Positions 1 through 47,927 of a stretch of 64,000 nt of DNA are shown here, piece by piece (the first letter of the stretch is position 1; each line of letters opens with the position of its first letter). The notes under the pieces are model-generated. The model worked only from the letters and a program-made list of their open reading frames with translations. It was not told where the DNA came from and ran no database searches. Position numbers and translations under genes: made by a program. The stretch is from an uncultured Pseudomonadales bacterium (lineage in GTDB: Bacteria; Patescibacteriota; Microgenomatia; UBA1400; PJMF01), in NCBI GenBank assembly GCA_964620965.1, contig CAZUHV010000003.1, forward strand, positions 12,777 through 76,776. The letters run 5' to 3'.

Positions 1-351
1 TCTGCAACTTGTGAACCTGCTACAGTTGGACCAATGTGTAAAGATGTTGCAATCCTTTCACAGGATGGCACAGAACTTGATCCAAAACAATCTGGCTCTT
101 TCTATGTTGGACAAATCATTAAATTTAGATGTGCAGCAGATGATCCAACTAACTCACTCATTTCTAAATATCAATTTAGAATTACTGAACCAAGTGGGGC
201 TGTAATCGAAGGAACTGCAATTAATCCTGCAGGATCAAGCGCAGTTTCAAAAGATTATCAAATCAACTTGACTGGATCTTTCAAAGCACAATGTAGGATT
301 TGTCTCACAGACAACACCTGTCAACCTTATATAAATATTGGAGCAAACTAA
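1..351 (+). CDS. C-terminal fragment of a secreted Cys-containing protein; the gene begins upstream of the window
   Basis: Frame 1 is open from nt 1 with no upstream stop and ends TAA at 349-351. The translation contains several Cys. No family recognised. Confidence 0.4.
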   Translation, partial: SATCEPATVGPMCKDVAILSQDGTELDPKQSGSFYVGQIIKFRCAADDPTNSLISKYQFRITEPSGAVIEGTAINPAGSSAVSKDYQINLTGSFKAQCRICLTDNTCQPYINIGAN

Positions 352-369
352 CTAAGGATTAACTGAAGA

Positions 370-2421
370 ATGCAAAATACAACGTCACAACAACAAACTT
401 TTATGACAAAACCAGCAATGCCAGCTCCTGCTCCAACAGTGGATATGCCAAACGGCAACATGCCTCAGGCCCCAAAAAAGAAAATGAGCTTAAAACCTAA
501 ACAAATGTTCGCAGTTGTTGGTTTAGTACTCTTTTTAGTCGTAGCAGTCATGGGAGTCATGATTGCACAAAGACAGGTTGCGCAAAAAGGCGAAGATGTT
601 ACTCCAGTAGCACCAACTGCACCAGATTCCCAACCTTCAGCTTCAACCTACGAACCAAATAACTGTGCAACCATGTTCTTTGTTCCAGGTTCAGAAGGAG
701 TTTGTGATACTAAAAAAGCTCTTACAGACTTCACAGCTAATAAAGGAACCAATATTCCACCTGGAAGTAGCTTTAATGTTGGTGATGAGTTTGTGTTTAG
801 CATTACCATTAAACAACCTTCAAAAGGCACTGCAAAAGACGTCATAGTTGAAGATACCCTTCCAAACTCACTTCAATTTGTAAGCGGGCCTACCGGCACA
901 GTTCCTTACACTATTACTAATAACGGTCAAACAGTTACCGCAACTATCCCAGAAATGGGTCCAGAAAGCTCTGTAAAAGTTGAGTTCAAAGTCAAAGTTG
1001 CTCAAGGTAATTATGGCGACCACGTAAACACAGCTAAAGTTACCTCAACTGACATCGTACCAGAACCAGGTTCTTGTACTTATAGCTTTAAAACATTACT
1101 TGGTGTTACTGAGTGTGTATCCAAAGAATTATATGACACACGAGGACAGCTTGTTCCTGATGGCGGAGCTTTAACTAGAGGCAAAGAATACGAATACCGA
1201 GTTACTGTTAAAGCAACAAATCGATCTCTTGGAGAAGTAAAAATTCTTGATGAACTTCCAGAAGAGTTAGAATATGTCAGACCAGCTGCTGGTAGTGAAA
1301 AATACATTGTTAACGATCCAACAAGTGGAATCTTAACTGCAAACTTTGGAGTTCTTGAAGACGAAGAAATGACTCTTGGCTTCATCATGAAAGTTCCAGA
1401 AGATCTAGAACCTACTAAGTTTGAAAATATTGCAAAAGTATATGCTTTTCCAGTAAATTCAAGACAACCTGAACCACCTGCAAATGCAGACATCTGTTCT
1501 GTTGCACACACTATACTCCCTGTTGGAACTGCAGAATGTGTTTCAAAACAAGCATTTACTCAAAATGGTGTTGAGATTAAATCTGGATCAGAAATCAAAC
1601 CTGCACAGACCTTCATGTATAGAATTACAGTTCTTGCAGAACAAACCACAACTGGACCAGTTACAGTAAGCGACACTCTTCCAGCAGGAATCAACTTCAT
1701 AGAAGATCCTGACAATACTCCAGGAATATCCGAGAGTAATGGGGTTGTCACTATTGAACTTGGTCAAATGCAAAGTGGTGAAAGAAAAGTTGTTGAGTTC
1801 ATGGTTCAAGTTGTTGCTAATCCAACAGCTGAAACCTTCAAAAATGTCGCAACTATCACTACTGGAGGTTCAAGTGAAACAGAACATAAATGTGAGCTTC
1901 CTTTAGACCTGGATGTTGAGTACAGCTGTAACAGTGAATGTGATACCAACGCTGACTGTGCCGAAGCAGGAGATGATTTTATCTGTTACAACACTGGTGA
2001 CGGAAAATACTGTAGATTAGAAGAAAATCCAACTAATGTCAGTTGTCTACCACCTACAGCTCCTCCTACAACACCTCCACCTACTGGTACTCCAACTCCT
2101 ACACCTCCTACTGGTACTGGCACACCAATCCCTACCGGAACTCCAGCACCTACTGCTGTTGTAACTCCAGCACCTGGATGTGATGAGCTCTGTGTACAAA
2201 ACTCAGACTGTAGCAATATCGACCACATCTGTACAACAACAGCAGATGGAAGCATGAGATGTAGATTAGCAGAATACCCAACTTCAAACACCTGTACCAT
2301 TCCTGCTCAGCCTGCATTGCCTCCAGAGCTACCTGCAACAGGTCCTGCTGATTGGTTGAACTGGTTGAAAGCTGGACTTGTAACACTCGGTATAGGAACA
2401 GCACTCTTCTTACTCCTCTAA
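370..2421 (+). CDS. Cell-surface protein with N-terminal membrane anchor, three DUF11-type repeat domains, PT-rich linkers, two 6-Cys modules and a C-terminal LPATG sorting signal
   Basis: 683-aa ORF. A hydrophobic segment FAVVGLVLFLVVAVMGVMIA lies near the N-terminus. Three repeats of pattern V.V.DTLP..L.FV.. follow, each preceded by a C...EC/VC motif. Two modules C-x3-C-x5-C-x7-C-x7-C-R-x-C are present. The protein ends LPPELPATGPADWLNWLKAGLVTLGIGTALFLLL, i.e. LPATG plus a hydrophobic tail. Confidence 0.7.
   Translation: MQNTTSQQQTFMTKPAMPAPAPTVDMPNGNMPQAPKKKMSLKPKQMFAVVGLVLFLVVAVMGVMIAQRQVAQKGEDVTPVAPTAPDSQPSASTYEPNNCATMFFVPGSEGVCDTKKALTDFTANKGTNIPPGSSFNVGDEFVFSITIKQPSKGTAKDVIVEDTLPNSLQFVSGPTGTVPYTITNNGQTVTATIPEMGPESSVKVEFKVKVAQGNYGDHVNTAKVTSTDIVPEPGSCTYSFKTLLGVTECVSKELYDTRGQLVPDGGALTRGKEYEYRVTVKATNRSLGEVKILDELPEELEYVRPAAGSEKYIVNDPTSGILTANFGVLEDEEMTLGFIMKVPEDLEPTKFENIAKVYAFPVNSRQPEPPANADICSVAHTILPVGTAECVSKQAFTQNGVEIKSGSEIKPAQTFMYRITVLAEQTTTGPVTVSDTLPAGINFIEDPDNTPGISESNGVVTIELGQMQSGERKVVEFMVQVVANPTAETFKNVATITTGGSSETEHKCELPLDLDVEYSCNSECDTNADCAEAGDDFICYNTGDGKYCRLEENPTNVSCLPPTAPPTTPPPTGTPTPTPPTGTGTPIPTGTPAPTAVVTPAPGCDELCVQNSDCSNIDHICTTTADGSMRCRLAEYPTSNTCTIPAQPALPPELPATGPADWLNWLKAGLVTLGIGTALFLLL
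2041..2160 (+). repeat. Coding Pro/Thr-rich linker (PTAPPTTPPPTGTPTPTPPTGTGTPIPTGTPAPT) giving a low-complexity DNA repeat
   Basis: Direct reading of reiterated cct/aca/act/cca codons inside CDS 370..2421. Confidence 0.6.
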
Positions 2422-2444
2422 AGAGTAATAGAAATAGAAAATCA

Positions 2445-2474
2445 AAACCCCGAATGAAAGTTCGGGGTTTTTTT
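2445..2474 (+). terminator. Rho-independent terminator after the first surface-protein gene
   Basis: aaaccccgaa-tgaaag-ttcggggttt hairpin followed by a T-run, about 25 nt after the stop codon. Confidence 0.6.
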
Positions 2475-2596
2475 GATACTTCAACCTTTACATAAATTGC
2501 TCGTTGACCTCTAGAGTTTTATTCATGTATCATGAGTACAAGGCTTGTTTTAGCTTGCCAATTTGTTTTGTAAAAAAATAAAAAGAAATTTATAAA

Positions 2597-5161
2597 ATGA
2601 TCAATGCATCCGGAGGTTCTCTTCCAACCCAATCAACAAATTCTAATAGTGATTCAACAACACCTGTTGTACCTACTCCAGGACCGGGCTTTCCAACCCA
2701 CAACCCAGCAGTACAACATAAACAATTTATGACTCCAGCAACTCCTATAGGAGGATCTCCTGCAACAGTTAACTCTGCTCCAAGAAATCCAGCTACCACA
2801 GCTCCTGTTCCAAATCCAATGGGAGCAGTTCCTCCTGCACCTCCAAAATTCCCTGATCCAACCAAAAACCTAGTTAGAGTAACTGATGAAGGAACTGATA
2901 CTGTTCCAGGTGGATCAGATGGCAAAGGTGACACGACCAAACCAAAAAGCAAGTTAAATTTAAAACTTATTATTGGTGTTGCCGTTTTACTTCTTGTGAT
3001 TCTTGGTTCAGGAGTGGGTTTTTACCTTTCTCAACAACAACAAGAAATTAGACAACAGGCATATATTGGAAATACATGTAATGTAGATTTTGATTGTAAT
3101 GGTCCTGGAAATACACTTAGATCAAATATCAATGTGCCTGAATACTGTAACAATGGAGTATGTAGTACTACTCCTCCAGCAGGAGCAACTTGTCCAAATC
3201 CTCCACATCTTCCAAGAGTGTGGTGTGCAACGTTTAACTGTCCAAATGGTGATACTACTGGTGATGGAGAATGTAATGTAGATGACCAAGGAGCTAGCTA
3301 CACAATTGGTGGAACTGAATGTTCAAATCCTTCATCTGGTTGTGGTCAGGTCGACTACTATTCAGGTGGAACACCAGGTCAAAGTTGGGATCAATACTGT
3401 GGACATACATTCCTTGAGCTTGATTGTGGCGGTGGCGGTACCCCTACCCCTACGCCAACTGCTACCCCTACACCTACCCCTACACCTGGTACGCTCTCTT
3501 GTAATAGTGTTTGTACTGTCGGCGGTCAAGCTTGCCCATCTGGTACGCAATGTATGATCACCTATAACTTTAGCCCAGCATTTGAAAATGTCACTTCAAC
3601 AGTTTCTAATGTTGGAACCGGTACTATTACTGGATTTAAATCTTTTGTCAGAAATGGCATCGTTGAACAGTATCTCATCAGAGGTGGCCAAATCTGGTAC
3701 AGACCTAATTTCACAACAGCATGGTCAAACGTAACCTCTAATGTTTCTAACGTTGGTACTGGTACCATAACCTCATTTAGTGCCTTTGTTAATACCTCAG
3801 GTGCTGTTGAACAGTACCTCATCAGAGGTGGTCAAATCTGGTACAGACCTAATTTAACTGCTACAACCTGGCAGAATGTAACAGGAAACGTAACAAATAT
3901 AGGTTCAGGTACTATTGATAGTTACAACGCAGATAAATATGCTCCAGGACATGGAAACATCGTCTCTGCATACCTTATTAGAGGAGGAAAAATCTGGCAT
4001 CACACCAGTTCTAACTGGAACCTTTGGCAAGATGTTACCTCTAATGTTTCAAATGTTGGAACAGGTGCTATGACTGACATCTCTTTCCATGTTAACCCAG
4101 ATGGCAGCTTGAGACACCACTTTGTAAGAGGTGGCCAAATCTGGTCAAGAATTGCACCACAAGCAGCAGAGAACCGTTGTAGACTTGCTACATATCCAAA
4201 CTCAGGTAGTTGTCAACCTCCTGCACCAACACCTACAAACACCCCTACTCCAACACCTACAGCAACGCCTACACCTACCCCAACGGCGACACCTACACCT
4301 ACCCCAACTCCTACGCCTGTACCACTCACTTGTAATGCAACCTGTAACCCAAGTGACCTTGTAGATCAGTGTACATTGGCAAATGCAAGTTGGTCTTGTG
4401 ATGCTACAACAAGTAAATGTAGAAGAACAGATAACCCAACTTCTGCTACCTGTGAGCTGCCTCCATTAACCTGTAATGCAACCTGTAATCCTGAGTCAAG
4501 ACTCGACAGATGTACAGCTGCAAATGACAAGTGGTTCTGTGATCCAGCAACAAGCACTTGTAGATTTGAAGAAAACCCAACCTCTACTACCTGTCAACCT
4601 CCTACAGGAGCAGTTGCATGTAATGGAAGTTGTACTTCAGATGCACAATGTCAATTGACCAGCGACCGTTACAGCTGTGACACAACAACAAATACATGTA
4701 GATTGACCAGTAATCCAACTTCTACTACTTGTGAACCTGTGCCACCAAAATGTAACGAAACCTGTACTTCAAATGCACAATGTATTCAAGGAAATGCAAA
4801 CCATATTTGTGACGAAACAACAGGCACATGTAGACTCAACAGCAATCCAGGAGACGCAAACTGTCAACCTCCTGCAGCTACACCTACCCCAACTCCAACA
4901 GTTGGCTGTAATGATGCTTGTGTAACAAATGCTGACTGTTCAGATACAAATCACATTTGTACCACTACAGAAGATGGCTCTATGAAATGTAGATTAGCAA
5001 GCTACCCAACTTCAACAAGTTGTACCTTGCCAGCTTCTGCAACAGCACAACCTACATTGCCTCCAGAATTACCTGCAACAGGTCCTGCTGATTGGTTGAA
5101 CTGGTTCAAAGCAGGCTTAGTAACACTTGGACTTGGAGCAGCACTCTTCTTCTTACTCTAG
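2597..5161 (+). CDS. Large cell-surface protein: Pro-rich N-terminus, one TM segment, Cys-rich region, four ~50-aa tandem repeats, PT linkers, five 6-Cys modules and a C-terminal LPATG sorting signal
   Basis: 854-aa ORF with TM segment LIIGVAVLLLVILGSGVGFYL. Four repeats match W..VT.NVSNVGTG.I......YLIRGGQIW. Five ~40-aa modules resemble CNATCNPSDLVDQCTLANASWSCDATTSKCRRTDNPTSATC. The C-terminus LPPELPATGPADWLNWFKAGLVTLGLGAALFFLL is nearly identical to that of the upstream paralog. Confidence 0.7.
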   Translation: MINASGGSLPTQSTNSNSDSTTPVVPTPGPGFPTHNPAVQHKQFMTPATPIGGSPATVNSAPRNPATTAPVPNPMGAVPPAPPKFPDPTKNLVRVTDEGTDTVPGGSDGKGDTTKPKSKLNLKLIIGVAVLLLVILGSGVGFYLSQQQQEIRQQAYIGNTCNVDFDCNGPGNTLRSNINVPEYCNNGVCSTTPPAGATCPNPPHLPRVWCATFNCPNGDTTGDGECNVDDQGASYTIGGTECSNPSSGCGQVDYYSGGTPGQSWDQYCGHTFLELDCGGGGTPTPTPTATPTPTPTPGTLSCNSVCTVGGQACPSGTQCMITYNFSPAFENVTSTVSNVGTGTITGFKSFVRNGIVEQYLIRGGQIWYRPNFTTAWSNVTSNVSNVGTGTITSFSAFVNTSGAVEQYLIRGGQIWYRPNLTATTWQNVTGNVTNIGSGTIDSYNADKYAPGHGNIVSAYLIRGGKIWHHTSSNWNLWQDVTSNVSNVGTGAMTDISFHVNPDGSLRHHFVRGGQIWSRIAPQAAENRCRLATYPNSGSCQPPAPTPTNTPTPTPTATPTPTPTATPTPTPTPTPVPLTCNATCNPSDLVDQCTLANASWSCDATTSKCRRTDNPTSATCELPPLTCNATCNPESRLDRCTAANDKWFCDPATSTCRFEENPTSTTCQPPTGAVACNGSCTSDAQCQLTSDRYSCDTTTNTCRLTSNPTSTTCEPVPPKCNETCTSNAQCIQGNANHICDETTGTCRLNSNPGDANCQPPAATPTPTPTVGCNDACVTNADCSDTNHICTTTEDGSMKCRLASYPTSTSCTLPASATAQPTLPPELPATGPADWLNWFKAGLVTLGLGAALFFLL
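3575..4170 (+). repeat. Four tandem ~150-nt coding repeats (VTSNVSNVGTGTIT...YLIRGGQIWYRPN units)
   Basis: Repeated nucleotide blocks gtaacctctaatgtttctaacgttggtactggtacc, with variants starting near 3590, 3731, 3878 and 4036. Confidence 0.6.
4219..4325 (+). repeat. Coding PT-rich linker (TPTPTPTATPTPTPTATPTPTPTPTP)
   Basis: Reiterated acc/cct/aca/cct codons; a shorter copy lies at 3433-3490. Confidence 0.6.
4331..5015 (+). repeat. Array of five tandem ~40-aa six-cysteine modules (coding repeat)
   Basis: Pattern C-x3-C-x5-6-C-x6-8-C-x5-7-C-R-x7-9-C repeated five times. Two further copies occur in CDS 370..2421 (about nt 1921-2046 and 2176-2295). Confidence 0.6.
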
Positions 5162-5186
5162 TGTTCTGAAAAAAATAAAAATATAA

Positions 5187-5220
5187 GCACCTCGAAATGT
5201 ATTTCGAGGTGCTTTTGCTT
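5187..5220 (+). terminator. Rho-independent terminator after the second surface-protein gene
   Basis: gcacctcgaaat-gt-atttcgaggtgc hairpin followed by ttttgctttt. Confidence 0.55.
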
Positions 5221-5290
5221 TTAACACTAAAAATTTCAAAAAAAGACCCTTCACAAACATACATCTGTGAAAGGTCTCCTTTTGAATATG

Positions 5291-5363
5291 TGAGTCGGGA
5301 GGGACTCGAACCCCCGACCAGTGAGGTATAAGCTCACCGCTCTACCAACTGAGCTACCGACTC
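5291..5363 (-). tRNA. tRNA, hand-folded anticodon loop CUUAUAC, anticodon UAU (Ile, AUA-reading)
   Basis: The reverse complement folds as a cloverleaf: acceptor GAGTCGG/CCGACTC, D-arm GCTC-AGTTGGTA-GAGC, anticodon stem GTGAG/CTCAC with loop CTTATAC, and T-arm GGGGG-TTCGAGT-CCCTC. It is 73 nt with no encoded CCA. The anticodon call rests on the manual fold only. Confidence 0.7.
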
Positions 5364-5538
5364 ATAACTTAGTTATTCGCCTCTTATCAATAAAAAATAG
5401 ACGAATGTTGGTAATATCTTCTCTGCTAAAATTCCAGAAAAATCCGCGAAAAAAAACAAAAAAGATATACAAGCATTATATACCACGAAACCACATCTGC
5501 AATTGGCACTGAAGGTTATCCCAGATCAAATTATGTTG

Positions 5539-5589: not shown

Positions 5590-6624
5590 ATGAAATCAAA
5601 GGTTAGATCACTCATTAGTTTACTTAAAAAGAAATGGAAACTCGTTCTTGTCATCCTCATAGTCTTGGGAATTGTGCTACTAGTTGTCAATTCGAAAAAT
5701 AAAAATAAAGTTGTACTCGTTTTTGAAAAACCAATCACCCAATCAATCACAAAAACACTTGATGTTTCTGGACATGTAGATGCAAAAGAAAAAGTAAGAC
5801 TACGTTTTCCTGCAGGTGGGAAATTAACCTATGTGGGCGCAAAAGAAGGTGATACAGTTAAAAAATGGCAAACAGTTGCAGCTATAGACAAAGCAACTTT
5901 ACAGAAACAACTTGATCAAGACTTAAATAACTACATGAAAGAACGCTGGGACTGGGAAGAAGTTGTTGATGAAAACAGAGATCAGGCACTTACTCTTTCT
6001 GAAAGACGCAGCCAAGATAAGGATCAATGGGATCTTACTAACACTGTTCTCACTGTCGAAATTCGTGACTTAGCACTACAAAACACCTCTTTGTACTCTC
6101 CTTTTGAGGGAATTTTAACCACTGCTCCAACGTCTGTCACAGGAATGCAGGTCCTCGCAACTGATTACTTTGAAATTGTTAATCCAAACACATTAGTTTT
6201 TAGAGCTGCAGTAGATGAATCGGATATTTCAAGTATTGTTGTAGGTCAAAAAGCAACTTTAGTTTTAGACGCATTTGAAGATATTGAAATCAATACAGAA
6301 GTCTCTTATGTAAGCTACACAAGCACAGAAGCCAGTAGCGGAACCTCATTTATTGTAGAGTTTCCACTCTCTCAAACAGAAATTGAGCAAATCCTTAGAA
6401 TTGGTATGAATGGAGACATTAAAATTCTTTTGGAAGAAAAAGAAAATGTACTTACAATTCCATCAATCGCTTTGATCGAAAGAGACGGAATAACCTATGT
6501 AATGGTTAAATCTGGTGAAAATAAATCTGAAGAAAGAGAAGTTGAAATTGGATTAGAAACAGACGAAACTGTCGAGGTCATTTCTGGACTTTCTGAATCA
6601 GATGAGGTCGTCATACCTGAATAA
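5590..6624 (+). CDS. HlyD/MacA-family periplasmic adaptor (membrane fusion) protein
   Basis: N-terminal TM segment LVLVILIVLGIVLLVV. A lipoyl-like beta-hairpin segment GHVDAKEKVRLRFPAGGKLTYVGAKEGDTVKKWQTVAAID is followed by coiled-coil and beta-barrel regions. The gene is immediately followed by a MacB-type ATPase and an FtsX-type permease. Confidence 0.65.
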   Translation: MKSKVRSLISLLKKKWKLVLVILIVLGIVLLVVNSKNKNKVVLVFEKPITQSITKTLDVSGHVDAKEKVRLRFPAGGKLTYVGAKEGDTVKKWQTVAAIDKATLQKQLDQDLNNYMKERWDWEEVVDENRDQALTLSERRSQDKDQWDLTNTVLTVEIRDLALQNTSLYSPFEGILTTAPTSVTGMQVLATDYFEIVNPNTLVFRAAVDESDISSIVVGQKATLVLDAFEDIEINTEVSYVSYTSTEASSGTSFIVEFPLSQTEIEQILRIGMNGDIKILLEEKENVLTIPSIALIERDGITYVMVKSGENKSEEREVEIGLETDETVEVISGLSESDEVVIPE

Positions 6625-6625
6625 T

Positions 6626-7348
6626 ATGTTACTAAGCTTACAAGAAGTTTCCAAACATTATCAAATGGGCTCTACTCTAACGAAAGCTCTTAACAAGGTA
6701 AATTTTGAGGTTGAAGAAGGTGAGTTTATTGCAATCATGGGTCCTTCTGGATCTGGAAAATCAACATTCTTGCAGGTTGCAAGCATGCTCGCAGAACCTA
6801 CTTCAGGAAAAATTATTCTTAAAGACAAAGATGTTACTGCTTACAACGAAATAGAGCGTGCACGCCTTCGAAATAAAGAAATTGGCTTTATCTTTCAACA
6901 ATTTAACCTACTTCCAAGAACTTCGGCAATTGATAATGCGCGCTTACCTCTTTTATATGCAAATGTTCCACACAAAGAACAAATGCAACGAGCAATAAAA
7001 ATCTTGGAGGATGTTGGACTTGGAGACAAACTGCAAAACACCCCTGCTCAACTTTCTGGTGGACAACAACAACGTGTCGCAATTGCTCGAGCACTTATAA
7101 ACGATCCTGCTATCATTTTTGCTGATGAGCCAACCGGAAATTTAGATACAAAAAGTGGCCAAGAGATTATGGACATGCTTACAAAGCTCCATTCTGAAGG
7201 AAAAACCATTATCATGGTGACACATGAAGAAGATATTGCAAGTTGTGCTCAAAGACAAATTAAGTTTAAAGATGGACAAATCATCTCTGATACAAAATCA
7301 AAAAATGTAGTTTGTAAGATAGATAAAAAGAAAAAAAAGAGAAAATAA
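6626..7348 (+). CDS. ABC transporter ATP-binding protein, MacB/LolD family
   Basis: Walker [11 protein letters not shown]-loop, ABC signature [15 protein letters not shown], Walker [13 protein letters not shown] and an H-loop. The ORF track starts at 6602 (MRSSYLNN); the ATG at 6626 ([12 protein letters not shown]) matches the family N-terminus better. Confidence 0.85.
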
Positions 7349-7356
7349 AAAAATAG

Positions 7357-8580
7357 TTGAGGCTTTTTACAATGGAAAATATTTTAAAAATAGCTTTAAA
7401 AGCCATTATGGTAAACAAATCCAGATCTATCCTTACGATGCTTGGGGTGATCATTGGTGTTGGTTCCGTTGTATTACTTACATCTATTGGAAATGGATTA
7501 AAAGCATACGTTGCCGACCAATTTGACCAACTAGGTGCAAACACCATTATTATTCTTCCAGGAGACCCATTTGGCGAAGGTGGAGGCTTTAGTAGAGAAC
7601 AACAAATCAGTGCTGTCTCAAACTCAAAACTTGAAATGGAAGACGTGAGCGATATTAAAAAAATCAGGGAATTTGTAAAAACCGCTATTCCATTTACAAC
7701 AATATCAGAAAAAATTTCCTATCGTGGAGAAGAAAAAAGTATTAGCATCATCGGCTCAACGGAGGAATATCCAGAGGTACAATCAAATGTAAAGATCGGA
7801 AAAGGTAGATTTTACACAAAAACAGAAAACAGTTCTAGAGAAAAAGTAATCGTGCTTGGTTTTGATGTCGCTGAAGAACTTTTTGGTAATATTGACCCAA
7901 TTGGAAAAACTGTTCGACTTGGAAGTCAAAACTTTAAAGTCATTGGTGTTCAAGAAAAGGTCGGTGGTGGTTTTGGAGGACCTTCATTTGACACATACGT
8001 CTTTATTCCTATCGAAACATACTTCAAACAATACGATACCAAAAAAATTATTGAAATCATTGTAAAAACAAAATCAACTGAAAATATTCCTGAATCAATC
8101 TCTGCAATTGAAAAACAAATGGGTAAAAAATACGATTCTGATGAGTTCTCTGTTGTTGATCAATCTCAGATTCTAGATACGATTAACGAAATTTTAGGAA
8201 TTTTGACAATTGGACTTGGCGGAATTGCAAGTATTTCTCTAGTTGTTGGCGGGATTGGAATTATGAACATTATGCTTGTTTCTGTCACCGAAAGAACTAG
8301 AGAAATTGGTTTAAGAAAAGCACTTGGAGCAACACCAAACTTGATTTTACTACAATTTTTAGTTGAAGCTGCCATTCTTTCAATTCTTGGGGGCCTTATT
8401 GGTCTTGTAATTGCCTACTTTGGAACCCTAGCAATGCAAATTTACTTCCCAGCAAAAGTTACCACGAGTGCAGTGATTATGGCATTTGGTGTTTCTACTG
8501 CTGTCGGGCTTATTTTTGGAGCTGCTCCAGCAAGAAGAGCTTCACAACTTTCCCCTATTGAAGCTTTGCGATACGAATAA
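7357..8580 (+). CDS. ABC transporter permease, MacB/FtsX family (MacB-type periplasmic domain plus four TM segments)
   Basis: N-terminal TM segment, then a large periplasmic domain, then a C-terminal FtsX-like four-helix bundle (LVSVTERTREIGLRKALGA motif). Confidence 0.8.
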   Translation: MRLFTMENILKIALKAIMVNKSRSILTMLGVIIGVGSVVLLTSIGNGLKAYVADQFDQLGANTIIILPGDPFGEGGGFSREQQISAVSNSKLEMEDVSDIKKIREFVKTAIPFTTISEKISYRGEEKSISIIGSTEEYPEVQSNVKIGKGRFYTKTENSSREKVIVLGFDVAEELFGNIDPIGKTVRLGSQNFKVIGVQEKVGGGFGGPSFDTYVFIPIETYFKQYDTKKIIEIIVKTKSTENIPESISAIEKQMGKKYDSDEFSVVDQSQILDTINEILGILTIGLGGIASISLVVGGIGIMNIMLVSVTERTREIGLRKALGATPNLILLQFLVEAAILSILGGLIGLVIAYFGTLAMQIYFPAKVTTSAVIMAFGVSTAVGLIFGAAPARRASQLSPIEALRYE

Positions 8581-8641
8581 GAACTGCCCTCTGGCATACC
8601 CTCTCGCCAATATCTAGATCAAGCTGTATACTGAAATTATT

Positions 8642-9058
8642 ATGTTTTCGTTCGTAAAAACAAAATTATTTTTATTCATTCTGCTTGCAGCAATAGTTGG
8701 AACTTTTTACTACTTTGGAGATCCTCAAAAACTCATCGGAACTATCGTTCCCAAACTAAAAGCAACTCCATTAGCACCGGCCGTTGAAAAAATAGAACAT
8801 ATTGATACTCAAGAAATAACAAAAAGCTTCCAACAAGGTGTAAAAAACGCAGAATCAGAAATTACTGGTCTTTCGCAAAGAACTACAGAAGTTAGCGAAC
8901 ATGCAGGAAACGTACTAGGATCTTCTATTGAACCAGCCCCTGAAGGAAATTCAACTCCTATTCATGAAAAAGCATTTGAATATGGGAAATATATTTACTG
9001 CAAACAAGTTGTTGATGATTATGAAACAATCAACCCTTCATTAAAAGAGAAAAATTAG
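8642..9058 (+). CDS. Hypothetical exported or membrane-anchored protein
   Basis: 138-aa ORF with N-terminal hydrophobic segment LFLFILLAAIVGTFYYF. No family recognised. Confidence 0.4.
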   Translation: MFSFVKTKLFLFILLAAIVGTFYYFGDPQKLIGTIVPKLKATPLAPAVEKIEHIDTQEITKSFQQGVKNAESEITGLSQRTTEVSEHAGNVLGSSIEPAPEGNSTPIHEKAFEYGKYIYCKQVVDDYETINPSLKEKN

Positions 9059-9124
9059 AACAATTTTTTCACAAATAACCTGCTAAAAAAGCATAACCCA
9101 AGAAAAGCTAAACAATTTTTCGAT

Positions 9125-11458
9125 CTATAAATTGCTTCTGCTCTGAATTTCCGCCTCAACAACATCTCTATCTTTACCATACTTGAGTCTTGAAAGCTCT
9201 TTAATCATTTCCGCTTGTTTAGGATTCATACGTGCATTGATAGAATCCATGTCTTTAAGTAACGACATACTAAATGGAGGAACTGGCTCATTCTTAACAA
9301 TCGTCTTTATATACACATGAAATTTCTCGATATTTGTTAAGTCACCTTCATTGAAAGTTGGCGAGAACTCATGTTGCAAAAAGTTCGCATCTGGAACACC
9401 AACACGAAAGGCAATCATAGTACCAACGTTACCAAACACAGCATTCTTCACCTCTTCATCAATCTGACTCACAAACTGATTTGCAACAATCAAATTAAGA
9501 CGATATTTACGAGCCTCAGACAAAATAACAGCGAAGTCCTCTGTTGCATAGTTCTGGAACTCGTCGACATACAAATAAAAGTCTTTACGATCTGCCATAG
9601 CCATATCTTGACGCGCCATAGCAGCAGTAAGCACTTTCGGAACAAGGATCAAACCTAAAAATTTAGCATCTTCTTCTCCAAGAATACCTTTTGAAAGGTT
9701 ACATAAAATAATTTTTTGTTCGTCCATTGCTTTTCTAATATTAAACGCACTTTCTGGCTGACCAATAATGTTACGCATTGTTTTATTCGTAACAAATCGA
9801 CCAAACTTAGAAACAATGTAGTCCAAAACCTCAGACTTGTGAAAGTCGGAAGTTTGAGCAATCTGGTCTGTCCAGTATCTTCGAACAACTGGGTCTTTTA
9901 CTAAAGGAAGCATCTCATCAACATATTTACTATCGGTTAAAATACGCACCAACTCAATAAAAGTACTGCCTTTTTTGTACATGATAGTAAGCATTGCATT
10001 ACGAATTGCATGCTCAAAACGAGGACCAATAATACCAGTTCTGTGCGGATCATACAGCTTGTACATCAATCCAATAATAGAACCTACAACAAAGTGGCGC
10101 TGTTCTTCGGAATCAGCTTCCATCATGTTTAAACCCATTGGACGATCCAAATCTGAAGGATTAAAGTAAATCACATCATCTGCACGCTCAGGTGGCATTA
10201 ATTGCAAGATATCTTCAATAAACTCACCATGTGGGTCAATTGCACAAACACCTTTGCCATTTTCAATATCTTGCAGAATCATCTCTTTAAGAAACTCAGA
10301 CTTACCTGTACCCGTTTTTCCAATAATGTACATGTGTCTTCTTCTATCATCTTCTCCAATAAAGACTTCACGAACCTCTCCTCTATAGGTAGATTTTCCA
10401 AGATGTAGTCCTTCTTTAGGAATTTTGTTAGGAGCAGGAGCATTTTTTGCGTTCAGCCAACGAATGTGATGCGTTTCAACAGTTTTGTTTGGTAAATGAA
10501 AAATAGTTGCAAGCTCTTCGGTATTAAGAACAAACGTGTCCTTATTAAACATTGGCATATATCGATACAAAAAGTCGATCATAAAAAGATGTTTAAAAAA
10601 TATCAGTTTTGTCTGCTTAAATGAGTTATATGCACCTGTAAACTGAGCAAATGCACCTTTTATATTGTTCAAGTGTGAATCTGCAATATATTCTTCTTTT
10701 GCTGATACAACAACTCTAATTGAAACTCTAAAACCTGGTTTCTCAGCCTTTTGACCAATGACTTCCATCTCTTTTGGATCATGAGAATATGTCGCCTTAT
10801 TTGGGTCAGCCTCACGTTTCTTTTGTGATGAAACATATGACCTACCTTGATTCTGCCATCTTTTTCCTTCTGGTTGCATCAAAATTTGCAAAATCGCACC
10901 CTCACCAGGACCCATTTTAGAAAGTGCAGAAGTAATAGCATTTAAACCATCCACCGGTAAATCTTTGTATGTTTTAATTGGATAATACGAGGCTCTATCT
11001 AAAGATAGCGAAGTAAATGCAACTTTACCCTTTTTGTTAAAAATATTAACTTCGTCGACTTCTTTAATCTCTGCATTTGGATATGACCCATGAATCTGTT
11101 TTTCTACTAAATCACGAATTCTTCGAGGGCAGTTCAGATAAAACGCAATATCTTCTTCAAGTGCAACAATTTCTAAAGAAAACAGATCCTCAGCCTTTGT
11201 GAATGCAAAAAACCCTGTTTTTTTGAGCGAATATAGACCGGCAAACATCTGTTCTGCTGAGTCAATCTTTGTCTCATTGTCTTTTGGAACTCTGATAAGC
11301 AATGTGACAAATTCAAGTGCAGTGTTTTCTTTGTTTCTATATTTATATTTTTGAAACAACATGTAACAAAAAACAATAAAGATCGCTAAAAGAAGCAATA
11401 ATAGTATTGCTGAACTAAAATACTGAACTGCTATAGCAAAAAAATCCTGTTCAAGCAT
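9125..11458 (-). CDS. T4SS ATPase of the FtsK/HerA superfamily (VirB4/TraC/TrbE-like or VirD4/TraG-like), N-terminal TM segment plus C-terminal NTPase
   Basis: 777-aa ORF. TM segment AILLLLLLAIFIVFCYMLF lies at the N-terminus. Walker A is RHMYIIGKTGTGKSEFL, followed by ...GVCAIDPHGE. Walker B region is FYLYVDEFQNY...ARKYRLNLIVANQ. An N-terminal domain of about 350 aa precedes the NTPase, which fits VirB4 topology better than VirD4. Confidence 0.65.
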   Translation of the reverse strand: MLEQDFFAIAVQYFSSAILLLLLLAIFIVFCYMLFQKYKYRNKENTALEFVTLLIRVPKDNETKIDSAEQMFAGLYSLKKTGFFAFTKAEDLFSLEIVALEEDIAFYLNCPRRIRDLVEKQIHGSYPNAEIKEVDEVNIFNKKGKVAFTSLSLDRASYYPIKTYKDLPVDGLNAITSALSKMGPGEGAILQILMQPEGKRWQNQGRSYVSSQKKREADPNKATYSHDPKEMEVIGQKAEKPGFRVSIRVVVSAKEEYIADSHLNNIKGAFAQFTGAYNSFKQTKLIFFKHLFMIDFLYRYMPMFNKDTFVLNTEELATIFHLPNKTVETHHIRWLNAKNAPAPNKIPKEGLHLGKSTYRGEVREVFIGEDDRRRHMYIIGKTGTGKSEFLKEMILQDIENGKGVCAIDPHGEFIEDILQLMPPERADDVIYFNPSDLDRPMGLNMMEADSEEQRHFVVGSIIGLMYKLYDPHRTGIIGPRFEHAIRNAMLTIMYKKGSTFIELVRILTDSKYVDEMLPLVKDPVVRRYWTDQIAQTSDFHKSEVLDYIVSKFGRFVTNKTMRNIIGQPESAFNIRKAMDEQKIILCNLSKGILGEEDAKFLGLILVPKVLTAAMARQDMAMADRKDFYLYVDEFQNYATEDFAVILSEARKYRLNLIVANQFVSQIDEEVKNAVFGNVGTMIAFRVGVPDANFLQHEFSPTFNEGDLTNIEKFHVYIKTIVKNEPVPPFSMSLLKDMDSINARMNPKQAEMIKELSRLKYGKDRDVVEAEIQSRSNL

Positions 11459-12089
11459 TATTTTCTTCCTGTTTATAGATTACTTTTCCAGTAAACATTC
11501 TAATAATCTTATGGCTAAACTCAACTAACCACCTAAAACTGTATTTTGGAGATTTTTTTGCACCTTCTTGTTCTTCTGCTTCCGTAATAGGCAAAACAAT
11601 AACAGGCCTACTTGGATATTGATTTGTAGGTACTTCACTAGTGCCATCTGCAATTACAACCTCTGTTGGAGCAGTATCGTGATGATCTTCGACCCGTTGC
11701 AAAAAGCTCTCAACTTCTACTGGAATCTCTGGATTTTTTTCTGTTTCGATTGCTTGAATTCCACCACCGGCATCTATAATCTGAGCATCTGCAGATTTAC
11801 CTGTTTCCACACGCTCTTTTGCAGTTCTGGCTCCACCTTGTTGTGGATTCAGTGTATCTGTTGCTTGATCAACAGCCTGAACAACTCCATGTGGAACTGT
11901 GTTTTGAATTTCATCCAAAACAGACTCAAACGTATCTAGTTTTTGAGTAGTATCATCTGTCTGAGTTGGATCACTAATAACTTGCCCCCGTTGAGCTTGA
12001 GAAATCTTCGAACCACTAAAAAGCTGGCTCACTCCAGAGAGAACTTGTCCTTTTTGAACTTGTTGTTGATTTTGGGTTTGGTCGTTCAT
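11451..12089 (-). CDS. Hypothetical Gln/Thr-rich protein, co-operonic with the T4SS ATPase
   Basis: 212-aa ORF overlapping the ATPase start by 8 nt, with a low-complexity Q-rich N-terminus. No family recognised. Confidence 0.45.
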   Translation of the reverse strand: MNDQTQNQQQVQKGQVLSGVSQLFSGSKISQAQRGQVISDPTQTDDTTQKLDTFESVLDEIQNTVPHGVVQAVDQATDTLNPQQGGARTAKERVETGKSADAQIIDAGGGIQAIETEKNPEIPVEVESFLQRVEDHHDTAPTEVVIADGTSEVPTNQYPSRPVIVLPITEAEEQEGAKKSPKYSFRWLVEFSHKIIRMFTGKVIYKQEENNA

Positions 12090-12112
12090 TAGCTAGTACA
12101 ATCATAGCATTT

Positions 12113-12685
12113 TTATTGCACTAATTGAACTACATCACCAGGTTGTATATTGAATTTTTCTGCATCACCAGCATTGACTTCTAAAACCATATCAGCATCT
12201 TGATTTGGAGAGTATGTTTCTAATCGATTGTCTGGCGTATCCTGTGGAGGTTTAGGAACATTTTTTGAAATTGCGACTACAATATTATTGTTTATCCAGA
12301 TCATGTCTAAGTCAAACTGCATGTCTTTCATCCAAAAGTATCGGTTTTCGCTTGTTGGAAAAATAAAAAGCATGCCTTCTGCACCGATTTCACTTCGCCC
12401 TGATAAACCCTGAGTAGTTGAATGAGCTGTATTTACAACTTCCACTGTAAGGATTCTTTCTTCTGGTATTGCTGTAAGTAGTTCTTCTGCGTCTGTTGCC
12501 TCTGCTATTTGCAGGGCTTCTAATTCTTTATTTGAGTTAAAAACGATTTCTACAATCTCTCTATCTTGCAAATCAGAAAAACGTCTTTGCTCTTCATCAA
12601 AAAGTGAGTTGCCATTTTTTTGTAAAATAAAATAACAAGTTATAGAAATCGCTAGCAAGAATATAAAAATAACTTTTTTAATCAT
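12113..12685 (-). CDS. DUF192-family protein (COG1430-like), secreted
   Basis: N-terminal signal-like segment. C-terminal pattern ...DMIWINNNIVVAI.....LEVNAGDAEKFNIQPGDVV is typical of DUF192. Confidence 0.5.
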   Translation of the reverse strand: MIKKVIFIFLLAISITCYFILQKNGNSLFDEEQRRFSDLQDREIVEIVFNSNKELEALQIAEATDAEELLTAIPEERILTVEVVNTAHSTTQGLSGRSEIGAEGMLFIFPTSENRYFWMKDMQFDLDMIWINNNIVVAISKNVPKPPQDTPDNRLETYSPNQDADMVLEVNAGDAEKFNIQPGDVVQLVQ

Positions 12686-29189: not shown

Positions 29190-29645
29190 ATGAAACTAGT
29201 TTCTAACTTAAAAAAAATATCAATTGTATTACTGTTATTAATTTTAGTTTGCTTTGCATCTCCTGCTGTTTCCTTTGCCCAAGAAGAAAATGGTGAAGGT
29301 AATGTAAACATGCAAGGCACAATACTTGAAGGCCCAAATAATGGCTTTTTCGACGCCATGAACCCACTTAAAACAGAGGGCTCTCCTGTAGCAGAACAAC
29401 TTTCTACACCCGGTGGAATTGTTTCTAGAGTTTTGAACTTCCTCTTTCCACTTGCTGGACTAGTCTTATTTGTAATGTTAGTCTGGGGTGGTTTTGAAAT
29501 TTTATCAAAGTCATCTCAAGGTACAAAAGGGGTCGAAGCTGGCAGAAACAGAATTACCGCAGCAATCGTTGGGTTCATTTTACTTTTTGCTACCTATTGG
29601 ATGGCTCAAATTATTGAGATTGTCTTTGGAATTGTGATCGTTTAA
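29190..29645 (+). CDS. T4SS pilin-like protein (VirB2/TrbC-type, CPR pilin family)
   Basis: The signal peptide ends SFAQ. The core is ...LVLFVMLVWGGFEILSKSSQGTKGVEAGRNRITAAIVGFILLFATYW. It starts 3 nt after the preceding gene. Confidence 0.65.
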   Translation: MKLVSNLKKISIVLLLLILVCFASPAVSFAQEENGEGNVNMQGTILEGPNNGFFDAMNPLKTEGSPVAEQLSTPGGIVSRVLNFLFPLAGLVLFVMLVWGGFEILSKSSQGTKGVEAGRNRITAAIVGFILLFATYWMAQIIEIVFGIVIV

Positions 29646-41048: not shown

Positions 41049-41456
41049 ATGACATTTTTTAAAATTCCAACCGTCTACGCTCAAACTGATCCCAACGAAC
41101 TTGTCGGAGATTTGGAAATTCCTAAGGGTGTAGATCTCATAAACCAAGATGCTGGTGGAATTGGAGTAATTTTATTTATTTCAAACATGATCAAGTTTGT
41201 CATTATTCTTGGAGGAATCTGGGCATTAATTAACATTATTTTTGCTGCATTTGCATATCTTACAGGAGGTGGGAAAGCAGACTCACACACTAAAGTTAAA
41301 GATAGATTTACTATGAGTATTATCGGGCTTATCTTAATGATTGTAGCGTATACAGTCGCTGCACTGGTTGGACAAATTTTCTATGGAGATCCAAACTTTA
41401 TTTTAAACCCAACATTAGAAGCTATTGCACAACCAACACCGACCCCAACACCATAA
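41049..41456 (+). CDS. T4SS pilin-like protein, paralog 2 of 8
   Basis: Leader MTFFKIPTVYAQ. Core ...ILGGIWALINIIFAAFAYLTGGGKADSHTKVKDRFTMSIIGLILMIVAYT...FYGDPNFILNPTLEA. C-terminus is a PT tail. Confidence 0.6.
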   Translation: MTFFKIPTVYAQTDPNELVGDLEIPKGVDLINQDAGGIGVILFISNMIKFVIILGGIWALINIIFAAFAYLTGGGKADSHTKVKDRFTMSIIGLILMIVAYTVAALVGQIFYGDPNFILNPTLEAIAQPTPTPTP

Positions 41457-41457
41457 T

Positions 41458-42057
41458 ATGAAAGTACTACTAATAAAAACACTTAGAAACTTTATACTTA
41501 CCTTCTTTACAGGACTTCTGTTTGCAGGAGTATTTTTTTCGGCAACTCTTATTTCTCCAAAACCTACTCTTGCTGCTTGCAGATATGCAGGCCAATGTGA
41601 TGATAATAGTATTTGTAGATGCCGAGAAGATTTAAATCCAATCGCTTGTTACTACATGGTTCGGTATGGAGATCCAGAGTCTGCATTAGTTCATAGTGAC
41701 GAAGCTTGTGGTTCTGCAATTATCGGTGGGGTTGAACCACCAGATGCAGTTGCAGCAATTAACCAGCAATCTGGCGGAGATATTGGCTTAATTTTCTTTA
41801 TTTCCAGAATAATAAATTTTGCCAATATTATAGCTGGGATCTTGGTCATGATTAATTTTGTCTACTCAGGATTTCTGTATGTTACAGGGGCTGGAAATGC
41901 TTCAAATATGTCTAAAATTAACGAAAGAATGATGTGGAGTGTTGTTGGGATATTAATGATCGTTGGATCTTATACACTTGCAGCAATTTTTGGATTGGTA
42001 TTCTACGGAGACCCAACATTTGTTATCAACCCAACTTTAACAGGAGCACTTAACTAA
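41458..42057 (+). CDS. T4SS pilin-like protein, paralog 3 of 8, with a Cys-rich N-terminal insertion
   Basis: The start is taken at MKVLLIKT; the ORF track starts at 41425, overlapping the previous gene. A 6-Cys segment CRYAGQCDDNSICRCREDLNPIACYY...EACGS precedes the pilin core. The C-terminus FYGDPTFVINPTLTG is shared with paralog 2. Confidence 0.55.
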   Translation: MKVLLIKTLRNFILTFFTGLLFAGVFFSATLISPKPTLAACRYAGQCDDNSICRCREDLNPIACYYMVRYGDPESALVHSDEACGSAIIGGVEPPDAVAAINQQSGGDIGLIFFISRIINFANIIAGILVMINFVYSGFLYVTGAGNASNMSKINERMMWSVVGILMIVGSYTLAAIFGLVFYGDPTFVINPTLTGALN

Positions 42058-47400: not shown

Positions 47401-47927
47401 CTACTACTGGAACTGGAGCCTGTGCAGGAAAAGAAACAAATGAGTATGTTCCAAGTATTCATAACGTTTCAAATTGGAAAAGTCCTGGTGATGCTGTAAT
47501 CGATTGTGAAGACCTCTACTCCTATGCCGATTGTACATATCCTGAGTCACTTGTTCAGAACCCTGTTAATAGTTCTGGAAAATTTGTTGAGAATGGTAAT
47601 GTCACTGCATGCCAGTATGTGGTAAACAAAGCAAAAGAACTTGGAGTTAGCCCTCGCCTAGCTCTTGCAATGTGGGGAGAAGAATCTGGGTTTAGTCACT
47701 ATAGAGTTCCAGATTTAGGGGTTATTTCACAACCAGCTCAAGACCTTGAGGCTCAAGTAACTAGCTTTGCAAACACTTTAAAGTCATACAGTAATTATAT
47801 AGACTTTTTGGAAGCTTATTCTGGTGAAGAAAGAGGAGATAACGACCCAAGTCCAAATCAATTCTGTAATAATCTGTACTTCCTAGCAAGACTAAAAGTC
47901 TTCTATGACTCTCTAGGACCTAGATAG
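44406..47927 (+). CDS. Large secreted protein of unknown function (1173 aa), in the T4SS-like locus
   Basis: Signal peptide MHIKFLKLLATQLSILFFLAMSLVIPKFALA. No TM segments after it. Cys-containing. No family recognised. Confidence 0.55.
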   Translation: MHIKFLKLLATQLSILFFLAMSLVIPKFALASELIGTHLGEGDVGYQINIIRNVLIPNGLEPGSPVTVMVPVTMIQDSQLGTVQELANAVSSAGYFPIVRINGVCSNFSAETGKGPGETVDAVRSIFGSQALIVWGNEINNKENECNDWQKYLSDYIQIEGRPNVSPAALDYYMGNPDFTVSKMFADTPGMEAIFNTSPRAANAYGCVGSNSADCDPSSTTTQEVGYGSVGNPFYLTEFSLSPGGNASDAPDTDIAKVLEFIASRAGETGAQKVTPLVRNVCNNDSAWLIYINGKLFTPQGNEVSENCEGISGGSGYDLSRYPEYGVDETKSYITPIRNLIDGASTQYTVAALREELAKQGYEAYCASENIKIDPKYDTEELINRYFELYPDGVQILEADSVETLSTTNAQYPLWRDVSNKQFLLTSLEEYFGFKDIYQSDPGASVLTSAPINSLLSEPQMCVQGWKNLVAQELACERLQNPGECELFTRPIPGTSYTVKTLLDALKAYEPGYREGMATKGCTNLVAGDRLLNPKLFEGLINTPTYFDRAYRYGFIVAVIHAKSPLTDSGNIAARIFNFFTESTRTEEPRDEVLVAAFKLPDIATNKFQDETNGVQFWDDPLSLTRLVLSNHERNELHAKDFDKTNAVRSRTETAADLFENANDAKVQNSGSKIFCSISSEDGDGNQVITKASTSCRNNMTKALTDIINGNAQGCGDVEAVNVIKDIAGLDNPEEKYGRVFNGDNGLEVILNLFKGDKTHPAAGSGQQTDPQRAETNDPAEKLKSLFTLSKDTWGSREGGTTVDFYVVYPMGFELNAVEDAMKGAFFTKAQIAALDSQQIVDGFPLTGQSMSLSAGSDGFEYIDPEKTAAGDCGTEQPVDPITGLPVGTPVPKPCTQDVSVTLSQESGGVGILGAKLGFWMRKIQTQLSSRTGEAWKYFSSCKTTEEFMLGKCTGGSFAGSDDNTGDGSPGTSGDDLVSVAQCNGGPRITAGGDAEHVSTTGTGACAGKETNEYVPSIHNVSNWKSPGDAVIDCEDLYSYADCTYPESLVQNPVNSSGKFVENGNVTACQYVVNKAKELGVSPRLALAMWGEESGFSHYRVPDLGVISQPAQDLEAQVTSFANTLKSYSNYIDFLEAYSGEERGDNDPSPNQFCNNLYFLARLKVFYDSLGPR

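Follow-up and report, generated by a model that had tools for sequence, protein, structure and literature searches.

Near the left end of the 64,000-nucleotide stretch analysed here (hereafter the window; positions 12,777 to 76,776 of contig CAZUHV010000003.1), two neighbouring genes, A (370..2421, 683 aa) and B (2597..5161, 854 aa), encode proteins that end in LPATG followed by a hydrophobic tail, and immediately upstream the window opens with the 3′ part (1..351) of another paralogue, gene 0. Coordinates refer to the window, and features lie on its forward (+) strand unless the minus strand is indicated. A, B and gene 0 probably constitute a tandem cluster of modular, sortase-type cell-surface proteins of a Patescibacteria (Candidate Phyla Radiation, CPR) bacterium, most likely adhesins. 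This reading is carried by the domain composition of the proteins, a sorting signal whose architecture is conserved throughout the family, the folds predicted for the proteins, the synteny of the locus and gene conversion in a relative. CPR bacteria live attached to other cells, and their host recognition and holding are largely unknown; the locus offers a concrete parts list for such attachment, comprising a C-terminal cassette, a six-Cys stalk module, a nested propeller and a Cys-rich head as candidate binding domains.

Sortases of CPR bacteria, CLIPPER stalks and large Cys-rich CPR extracellular proteins are already known, and what is new here are the details of how A and B are built and the variant of the tail. 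The fixed-length signal without a basic tail, the six-Cys module, the nested propeller and the RQQA leader were not found in Pfam, NCBIfam or the searchable literature.

A family-wide, probable sortase-type signal of nearly fixed length

Judged by its sequence, the C-terminus of A and B is recognisably a sortase-type signal that departs from the classical design in one defining feature, the C-terminal positive charge. LPATG lies 25 residues from the end of both proteins (A, 2329..2418, tail PADWLNWLKAGLVTLGIGTALFLLL; B, 5069..5158, tail PADWLNWFKAGLVTLGLGAALFFLL), hydropathy (Kyte-Doolittle, averaged over 19 aa) rises above 1.6 at A 665 and B 836, and both sequences end in LLL with no K or R past the hydrophobic stretch, just as the initial annotation had described when it called this tail atypical for LPXTG proteins. 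When the isolated tails were compared with TIGR01167 (LPXTG_anchor; cut-off 15.9 bits), B scored 16.9 bits and A 14.9 bits, with the alignment covering model positions 1-28 (or 27) of 34 and stopping where the charged tail would be. The tail of a homologue, P0015, reached 21.5 bits against PF00746 (cut-off 20).

The family was sampled by an exhaustive HMMER search with B, yielding 1041 representative proteins at E <= 1e-3 (197 at E <= 1e-10), most of them aligning through the C-terminal modules up to the last residue; 189 proteins were fetched for motif counts. The exhaustive search was needed to see the family, as only one match came up when the 87-aa C-terminal cassette served as query in a word-indexed search. 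A C-terminal end of the form LPx[T/S/A]G plus 22-28 residues was present in 120 of the 189 proteins. Among the 122 tails captured by a broader pattern set, the Gly is followed by exactly 25 residues in 99, and K or R occurs within the last eight residues in only three. The tail consensus is Q-P-x-L-P-x-x-L-P-[QE]-[TS]-G-P-[EA]-D-W-x-N-W-L-K-A-G-L-x-x-L-G-x-G-A-x-L-L-L-L-L-COOH, its hydrophobic part being AGLVTLGIGAALLLLL with DWxNWLK before it. Within the pentapeptide, L, P and G are conserved at 100% and T/S at 96%, the two W at 78% and 90%, the K at 82% and the terminal Leu at 95%. The tail is a trait of the family and not peculiar to the A/B pair.

Gram-positive LPXTG proteins share with A and B the C-terminal LPx[T/S]G and hydrophobic end, an N-terminal export signal (putative in A and B) and the stalk-plus-head layout of adhesins. 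The A/B family differs from them in having no positive tail and ending ...LLLLL-COOH, in a near-fixed post-Gly length of 25 aa, in the conserved spacer P-[EA]-D-W-x-N-W-L-K-A-G and upstream Q-P-x-L-P-x-x, and in the position of its single Lys, which precedes rather than follows the hydrophobic stretch. A sorting signal that works without a cationic tail would bear on how sortase substrates are retained. The cassette is also missed by current profiles in whole-protein scans, leaving wall-anchored proteins under-annotated, and a dedicated cassette profile would permit a census of such proteins in CPR genomes.

The stereotypy of the signal far past the pentapeptide (QPxLPxxLPxTG-PxDWxNWLKAG...LLLLL), together with the lack of a feature normally needed by sortase substrates, would also suit a different, possibly CPR-specific enzyme, whether exosortase-, rhombosortase- or archaeosortase-like or of an unknown kind. 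We consider recognition by such an enzyme in place of a sortase highly improbable: the PEP-CTERM, GlyGly-CTERM, PGF-CTERM and other sorting-domain models of NCBIfam and Pfam gave no match to the isolated tails at E <= 10, only LPXTG-type models doing so, and clustering of the neighbouring genes at 62 related loci yielded no recurrent candidate sorting enzyme. What recurs around these loci is a trio of membrane-fusion protein, ABC ATPase and MacB-type permease, a DUF87 ATPase, PGK, an S1 protein and small open reading frames (ORFs).

Domain architecture of A and B

From the ORF list, Pfam, NCBIfam and hydropathy, protein A consists of a leader, a transmembrane segment, three CLIPPER (DUF11) domains, a six-Cys module, a linker rich in proline and threonine (PT), a terminal six-Cys module and the LPATG tail. 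The hydrophobic segment (aa 46-66; 505..567), located by hydropathy scan, has KKK...K.K before it and IAQRQVAQ after it. The Ig-like domains that follow (aa ~112-236, 249-376 and 390-508; 703..1893) matched PF01345 in three stretches with 93.1 bits (cut-off 24.6), TIGR01451 with E = 4.5e-15 and 55.4 bits (cut-off 24), and TIGR04226, the isopeptide-forming domain, with 50.3 bits (cut-off 30), in full accord with the three DUF11-type repeats initially assigned to the first protein. DUF11 has now been renamed CLIPPER, a CnaA-like Ig domain for which a role as an isopeptide-bonded stalk element in fibrillar adhesins has been shown experimentally (PMC12617251). Protein A weakly matched the crystal structure of a CLIPPER domain, 9IFR (E = 6e-4), in an alignment that covers the Asp and Asn regions. 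Each of the three domains has C-x-[ST]-K at its start, plus [IV]-x-[DE]-[TE]-LP and x-N-[TIV]-A-x-[VI]; the Lys, Asp(Glu) and Asn thereby found at the expected motif sites in all three are candidate isopeptide positions. Cys pairs lie between the domains. Protein A resembles the CLIPPER fibrillar adhesins (PMC12617251; PDB 9IFR) in its tandem CLIPPER domains, Lys/Asp/Asn motif sites, sorting signal and stalk; it differs in adding uncatalogued six-Cys modules and a CPR-type tail, and its isopeptides are predicted from sequence.

Protein B, delineated from the ORF list, hydropathy, homologue alignment and AlphaFold2, proceeds from a long leader through a transmembrane segment, the RQQA motif, a Cys-rich head, a PT linker, a split six-Cys module with a propeller nested in it, a second PT linker, four six-Cys modules, a third PT linker and a terminal module to the LPATG tail. 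As a whole it matched no Pfam family, and in NCBIfam only FliL, far below threshold. The PT-rich linkers noted at the outset in both proteins are real (DNA repeat D1). Next to the transmembrane segment stands the Cys-rich head (aa 161-277, 12 Cys, including WCATFNCPNGDTTGDGEC...CGQVDYY; 3077..3427), which is common to B and to P0010, P0012, P0020 and P0021 and has no Pfam match.

Six-Cys modules are spread across the two genes. Seven complete copies of ~40 aa are present, as the initial annotation had counted, two in A and five in B; that count had missed an eighth, split copy in B. In A they are module 1 (aa 520-559; 1927..2046) and the terminal module (aa 604-642; 2179..2295), the latter of the type C-x3-C-x2-N-x-D-C-S-x3-H-I-C that precedes the tail family-wide. 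B carries four in tandem (aa 579-619, 626-666, 675-712 and 719-756; 4331..4864) and the terminal one (aa 771-809; 4907..5023). The consensus, C-N-x2-C-x5-C-x6-9-C-x4-9-C-R-L-x2-[NY]-P-x-S-x2-C, was found in 394 copies in 189 proteins, and over these copies the C4-C5 loop is among the most length-variable spacings. No Pfam or NCBIfam model matches the Cys spacing and the C-R-L-x2-N-P-x-S-x2-C signature. The AlphaFold2 model of the five-module segment has each module as a short helix plus β-hairpin; its low predicted template-modelling score (pTM, 0.39), despite a local predicted distance difference test (pLDDT) of ~80-88, suggests that the modules have no fixed position relative to one another. 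Foldseek comparison of this model with the PDB gave no significant structural match (best E = 2), and the best local superpositions were with knottin toxins (TMt 0.5-0.65 over ~30 residues). Knottin and EGF-like arrays are comparable to the six-Cys modules in length (~40 aa), six Cys, tandem stalk and local superposition of helix and hairpin, and differ in the points just given, the module having neither a significant structural match nor a catalogued Cys spacing.

The four ~50-aa NVSNVGTG repeats of B were first described as an array of their own. The repeats are real (DNA repeats D3, D5 and D7), yet they are not free-standing: structure prediction makes them the blades of a four-bladed hemopexin-like β-propeller (3554..4177) nested in the C4-C5 loop of the split module, whose N-terminal half (C302, C306, C313, C319; 3500..3553) precedes the propeller and whose C-terminal half (C528-R-L...C539; 4178..4213) follows it. 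The six Cys of the split module and its signature N, R and L are invariant across nine homologues. Run on the homologue alignment, AlphaFold2 modelled the propeller segment with a pLDDT of 91.6 and a pTM of 0.87 and with four repeated groups of strands, and the top Foldseek matches of this model in the PDB were vitronectin (7u68, 7rj9, 6o5e) and MMP-14 (3c7x), at E ~1e-6 and template-modelling scores of 0.44-0.58. Even with the limit relaxed to E <= 10, the hemopexin profile PF00045 matched neither B nor its repeats taken on their own. In common with the propellers of vitronectin, matrix metalloproteinases and hemopexin (PF00045), that of B is predicted to have four ~50-aa blades and chain ends tied by disulfide-bonded Cys, with the difference, beyond the missing PF00045 match, that closure would come from the six-Cys module halves flanking the propeller and not from a single disulfide. 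Blades 1 and 2 (3662-3714 versus 3806-3858) are 94% identical over 53 nt, far above the other blade pairs, which suggests a recent intragenic duplication or conversion.

The repeats had also been described as rich in N-x-S/T sequons, a claim that did not survive a composition test: B as a whole has 16 sequons, where its composition predicts 13.8 +/- 3.2 (P = 0.29). An excess confined to the repeats (10 versus 4.2 expected) is due to a single motif recurring in every blade, and its position is mostly occupied by D-x-T in the homologues. N-glycosylation as a reading of these sequons was rejected on account of the composition-level count and of the D-x-T found in most homologues.

At the other end of the proteins, the N-terminal transmembrane anchors reported at first were borne out by hydrophobic segments at aa 46-66 of A and aa 124-144 of B. 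The B segment, together with the conserved motif that follows it, YLSQQQQEIRQQA, spans 2966..3061 and ends at A155, the first ectodomain Cys being six residues on. The basic patch and ~21-aa hydrophobic segment lie 45-123 residues from the N-terminus. The leader of B (2597-3061, aa 1-155), which is also that of P0002-P0016, runs from MINA.. through FPTHNP, KFPDPT, a basic patch, a transmembrane segment ending ...GSGxGFYLSQ and Q-[DE]-x-R-Q-Q-A to the first ectodomain Cys, the fuller consensus being MINA...FPTHNP...KFPDPT...TM-YLSQxxQDxRQQA, where TM stands for the transmembrane segment. Its conservation was assessed by regular-expression counts among the 189 fetched proteins, 17 of which have the GSGAGFYLSQ form. 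A word-indexed search with the leader (aa 1-159) returned nothing at E <= 1e-3, possibly owing to low-complexity bias. This leader may serve as a specialised signal for export or for cleavage.

Proposed surface display and function

Taken together, these elements suggest how A and B could reach and hold the cell surface. The N-terminal hydrophobic segment, after a basic patch and a long low-complexity leader, would drive Sec-dependent export, and the ectodomain would fold outside the cell, where disulfide bonds within the six-Cys modules and within the Cys-rich head would stabilise it; DsbA-like and VKOR families have been described for CPR genomes (PMC6744442). In A, intramolecular isopeptide bonds in the three CLIPPER domains would add stability, as conserved residues and knowledge of the domain family suggest. 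QPxLPxxLPxTG and the 25-residue hydrophobic tail would hold the protein at the membrane until a putative housekeeping sortase, encoded elsewhere, cut after the Thr and linked the protein to peptidoglycan, with QPTLPPELPATGPADW and QPTLPPELPATGPADWLNW as putative peptide substrates. The wall-proximal C-terminal part, made of PT linkers and six-Cys modules, would then serve as a stalk, while binding would fall to the distal N-terminal part, which in B carries the Cys-rich head and the hemopexin-like propeller and in A the CLIPPER domains.

No sortase was found near these genes. The window holds no TLxTC-type motif in any real ORF, and PF04203 is not among the Pfam matches of 30 of its ORFs, in agreement with the initial statement that no sortase gene lies in the window. 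A TLxTC-type motif scan of the ~740 kb flanking 78 tail-bearing genes, from 61 related metagenome loci, found none either, which is uninformative because only ~0.7 would be expected there by chance (assuming about one sortase gene per ~1-Mb genome), and sortase is likewise missing from the Pfam labels of neighbouring genes on five related contigs. All that follows from these results is that the gene for the enzyme does not lie close to those of its substrates. According to the literature, a sortase family is present in over 50% of CPR genomes and near-ubiquitous among Microgenomates (PMC6744442), and individual CPR genome papers also report a sortase, for example in Peribacteria (PMC4736985).

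Several observations weigh against sortase-dependent display of adhesins. Besides the lack of a sortase in the window, the LPXTG model is absent from whole-protein scans of A and B at E <= 1, the canonical positively charged retention tail is missing from both, and the hydrophobic stretch proper after the Gly has only ~16 residues. At the N-terminus, the conserved candidate cleavage site RQQA has Gln at -3; the segment may stay uncleaved, and A and B could then be tethered at both ends. The five-module segment, as noted above, resembles no known structure significantly, and the adhesin role derives from architecture only.

Some of these features would be explained if the tail were never cleaved and acted as a permanent C-terminal membrane anchor, possibly as part of a double tether, with LPxTG kept as a hinge or partner-binding motif. 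The missing basic tail, the length fixed at 25 aa, and the conserved Trp-rich interfacial residues and G-x4-G-x-G, which suggest a structural role of the tail, are in favour of such an anchor, as is the failure to find a sortase in the window or the ~740 kb of related loci. We nevertheless find it unlikely, given that L, P and G (100%) and T/S (96%) are conserved as a sortase motif would be, that the tails match LPXTG profiles at or near curated cut-offs, that P0155, P0173 and P0183 have canonical basic tails at the same position, and that sortase is common in CPR bacteria (PMC6744442).

A further question is whether the proteins are structural components of the envelope, forming an S-layer-like or wall-spanning scaffold, and not adhesins. 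One syntenic position has been kept across many related genomes, as for housekeeping envelope genes, and stalk-like repeats make up most of the sequence. Against this, the middle 'cargo' domains vary among orthologues and are exchanged between paralogues, a typical pattern for proteins that face a host or ligand and evolve under diversifying pressure, and fibrillar adhesins typically have CLIPPER stalks and heads of propeller or lectin-like type (PMC12617251). A scaffold role thus appears rather doubtful, and an adhesin role remains the one we favour. Large Cys-rich extracellular CPR proteins have been proposed for attachment before (PMC4736985): those of Peribacteria resemble A and B in being exported CPR proteins encoded by clustered genes, with a proposed role in attachment, strain-level variation and a sortase in the same genomes. 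Compared by description only, they are larger (~1,655 aa on average), with no shared module or signal variant defined.

Beyond the adhesin reading, a broader proposal has, in our view, a modest chance of being right. The stereotyped C-terminus and the N-terminal leader might belong to a surface-sorting pathway specific to the CPR lineage, in which a sortase reads an extended signal or uses an acceptor other than lipid II, and the six-Cys module might be a new disulfide-rich fold, its C4-C5 loop being a general docking site for nested cargo. If true, retention and recognition would differ from classical Gram-positive sorting.

Evolution of the 3′ ends and exchange of modules

The near-identical 3′ ends of A and B, with a 35-nt identical run, had initially been taken as a sign of modular adhesins evolving by duplication or gene conversion. 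The 35-nt sequence does occur exactly twice, at 2332-2366 and 5072-5106; the positions first given were off by 7 nt and 1 nt, respectively, and the maximal exact match is a 37-nt run (2330..2366, identical to 5070-5106) that encodes most of LPATGPADWLNW. Identity between the two genes is 84% over the last 116 nt and 70% over the preceding 167 nt, and BLASTN aligned them at 76.5% over 264 nt, with no other DNA similarity between the genes. This near-identity is mainly that of a conserved C-terminal cassette (terminal Cys module, QPxLPxxLPxTG and 25-aa tail) common to hundreds of proteins. The other part of the initial proposal fared better, since modules are shared and conversion is clear in a relative, the JGI contig at locus L008.

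Whether purifying selection on the family-wide cassette accounts for the whole of the 3′ similarity, with no conversion between A and B in this genome, is an evenly balanced matter that touches the evolutionary claim only. For selection speak the cassette itself, often > 60% identical at the ends of hundreds of proteins, and the confinement of DNA similarity between A and B to the last ~270 nt. The hydrophobic ends, moreover, pair with their orthologues in a four-way comparison, A with the L008 A-orthologue and B with the L008 B-orthologue P0006, being nearer to them than to each other (GIGTALFLLL versus GLGAALFFLL). For conversion speaks the 37-nt run, in which all synonymous sites are identical and whose chance occurrence, assuming independent sites, has a P of ~0.003 (270 nt at 76%) to 0.02 (116 nt at 84%). 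Codon identity at identical residues is also higher in the A-B pair (0.69) than in five other pairs (0.41-0.54), including the same-genome pair of L008 (0.48), and conversion is demonstrably active in the family. A short conversion tract between A and B is therefore plausible but unproven, the 37-nt patch being a suggestive hint and the only one.

At L008, gene 0 (6110-8269) and gene B (10001-12646) are 97.2% identical over 752 nt covering the split module and propeller, between flanks of ~85%, a clear sign, on comparison of the two sequences, of a recent gene conversion or domain-copy event. The propellers of B and P0006 share only ~32% protein identity. Orthologues of B vary in their middle domains, whereas the leader/head and the five-module/tail region are conserved. 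The family would accordingly be one that diversifies by cassette swap, duplication and conversion between paralogues, including transfer of a whole propeller nested in a module loop, with the leader and terminal cassette held constant. Domain exchange by gene conversion among paralogues is a plausible route to host-range variation.

The gene trio and its neighbourhood

What had been described as a pair of genes is really a trio, with the third paralogue upstream. An ORF at 34-351 encodes, without any difference, the C-terminal end of the complete gene 0 protein, P0009 (794 aa), which was recovered from a Logan contig (locus L009); this contig is 100% identical to window positions 1-1886 and reaches 2324 nt further upstream, covering all of gene 0 (291-2675 in L009). 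Neither A nor B was on record in the contig index when looked up by exact match. P0009 has an N-terminal anchor, a leader of the same kind, six-Cys modules and, enclosed by the halves of a split one, a propeller, and it ends in a ~105-aa four-Cys domain (MCKDVAIL...CRICLTD.TCQ) in place of the LPXTG tail. This domain has no Pfam match. It also terminates P0008 and P0016, and a similar one is present in P0020.

The trio and its neighbours are syntenic between the window and L008, where the order is PGK, gene 0, A-orthologue, B-orthologue P0006, membrane-fusion protein, ABC ATPase, MacB-type permease, small ORF and DUF87 ATPase; the A-orthologue has two CLIPPER domains versus three in A. Pfam confirms membrane-fusion protein, ABC ATPase, MacB-type permease and DUF87 ATPase at 5590-11458 of the window, with the membrane-fusion protein (HlyD_3), ABC ATPase and MacB_PCD/FtsX permease at 5590-8580, downstream of B, and the DUF87/TrwB-like (VirB4/VirD4-type) ATPase at 9125-11458 on the minus strand. 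Among the 62 related loci, the membrane-fusion/ABC/MacB trio was present at 30, the DUF87 ATPase at 23 and PGK at 22, and 15 had two or three tail-bearing genes side by side. The proximity of the transporter trio to B probably reflects conserved synteny and not an operon, because terminator-like hairpins and a tRNA gene on the opposite strand separate the two. After B, a 13-bp hairpin followed by TTGCTTTT (5185..5214) is a likely terminator, and the tRNA gene lies just beyond it (5291-5363, minus strand; its counterpart is at 13392-13468 of L008). A 77-nt stretch over this tRNA gene (5289-5365) is 100% identical to L008, although the flanking protein genes have strongly diverged. Between A and B, a GC-rich hairpin and T-run begin 23 nt past the A stop codon (2444..2474) and are a likely intrinsic terminator. 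Upstream of B, a promoter-like TTGACC-18-TATCAT (2504..2533) matches the consensus at 10 of 12 positions, and such sites are not commoner here than in shuffled sequence.

Elsewhere in the window, the G+C content of which is 30-42%, two ORFs match T4SS_pilin (29190-29645 and 41425-42057; E = 1.7e-7 and 0.0037, respectively) and, together with the DUF87/TrwB-like ATPase, suggest type-IV-secretion-like envelope machinery scattered through the window. Four large ORFs have no Pfam family at E <= 1e-5, three on the forward strand (44406-47927, 55489-57711 and 57755-62200; 1173, 740 and 1481 aa) and one of 1004 aa on the minus strand (51040-54054). Identification of the 1173-aa ORF as rpoB was rejected for want of a Pfam match; in a set of species-representative genomes its relatives were found only in metagenome-assembled genomes of Patescibacteria type, the best being BroJett025 at 66% identity. 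Another contig, CAZKVV010000003.1 (loci L002 and L011), from a public metagenome-assembled genome, combines P0010, a protein with the CPR-type tail, with a relative of the 1173-aa ORF in the same PGK-linked synteny, and the label 'uncultured Pseudomonadales bacterium' that this contig bears is probably wrong.

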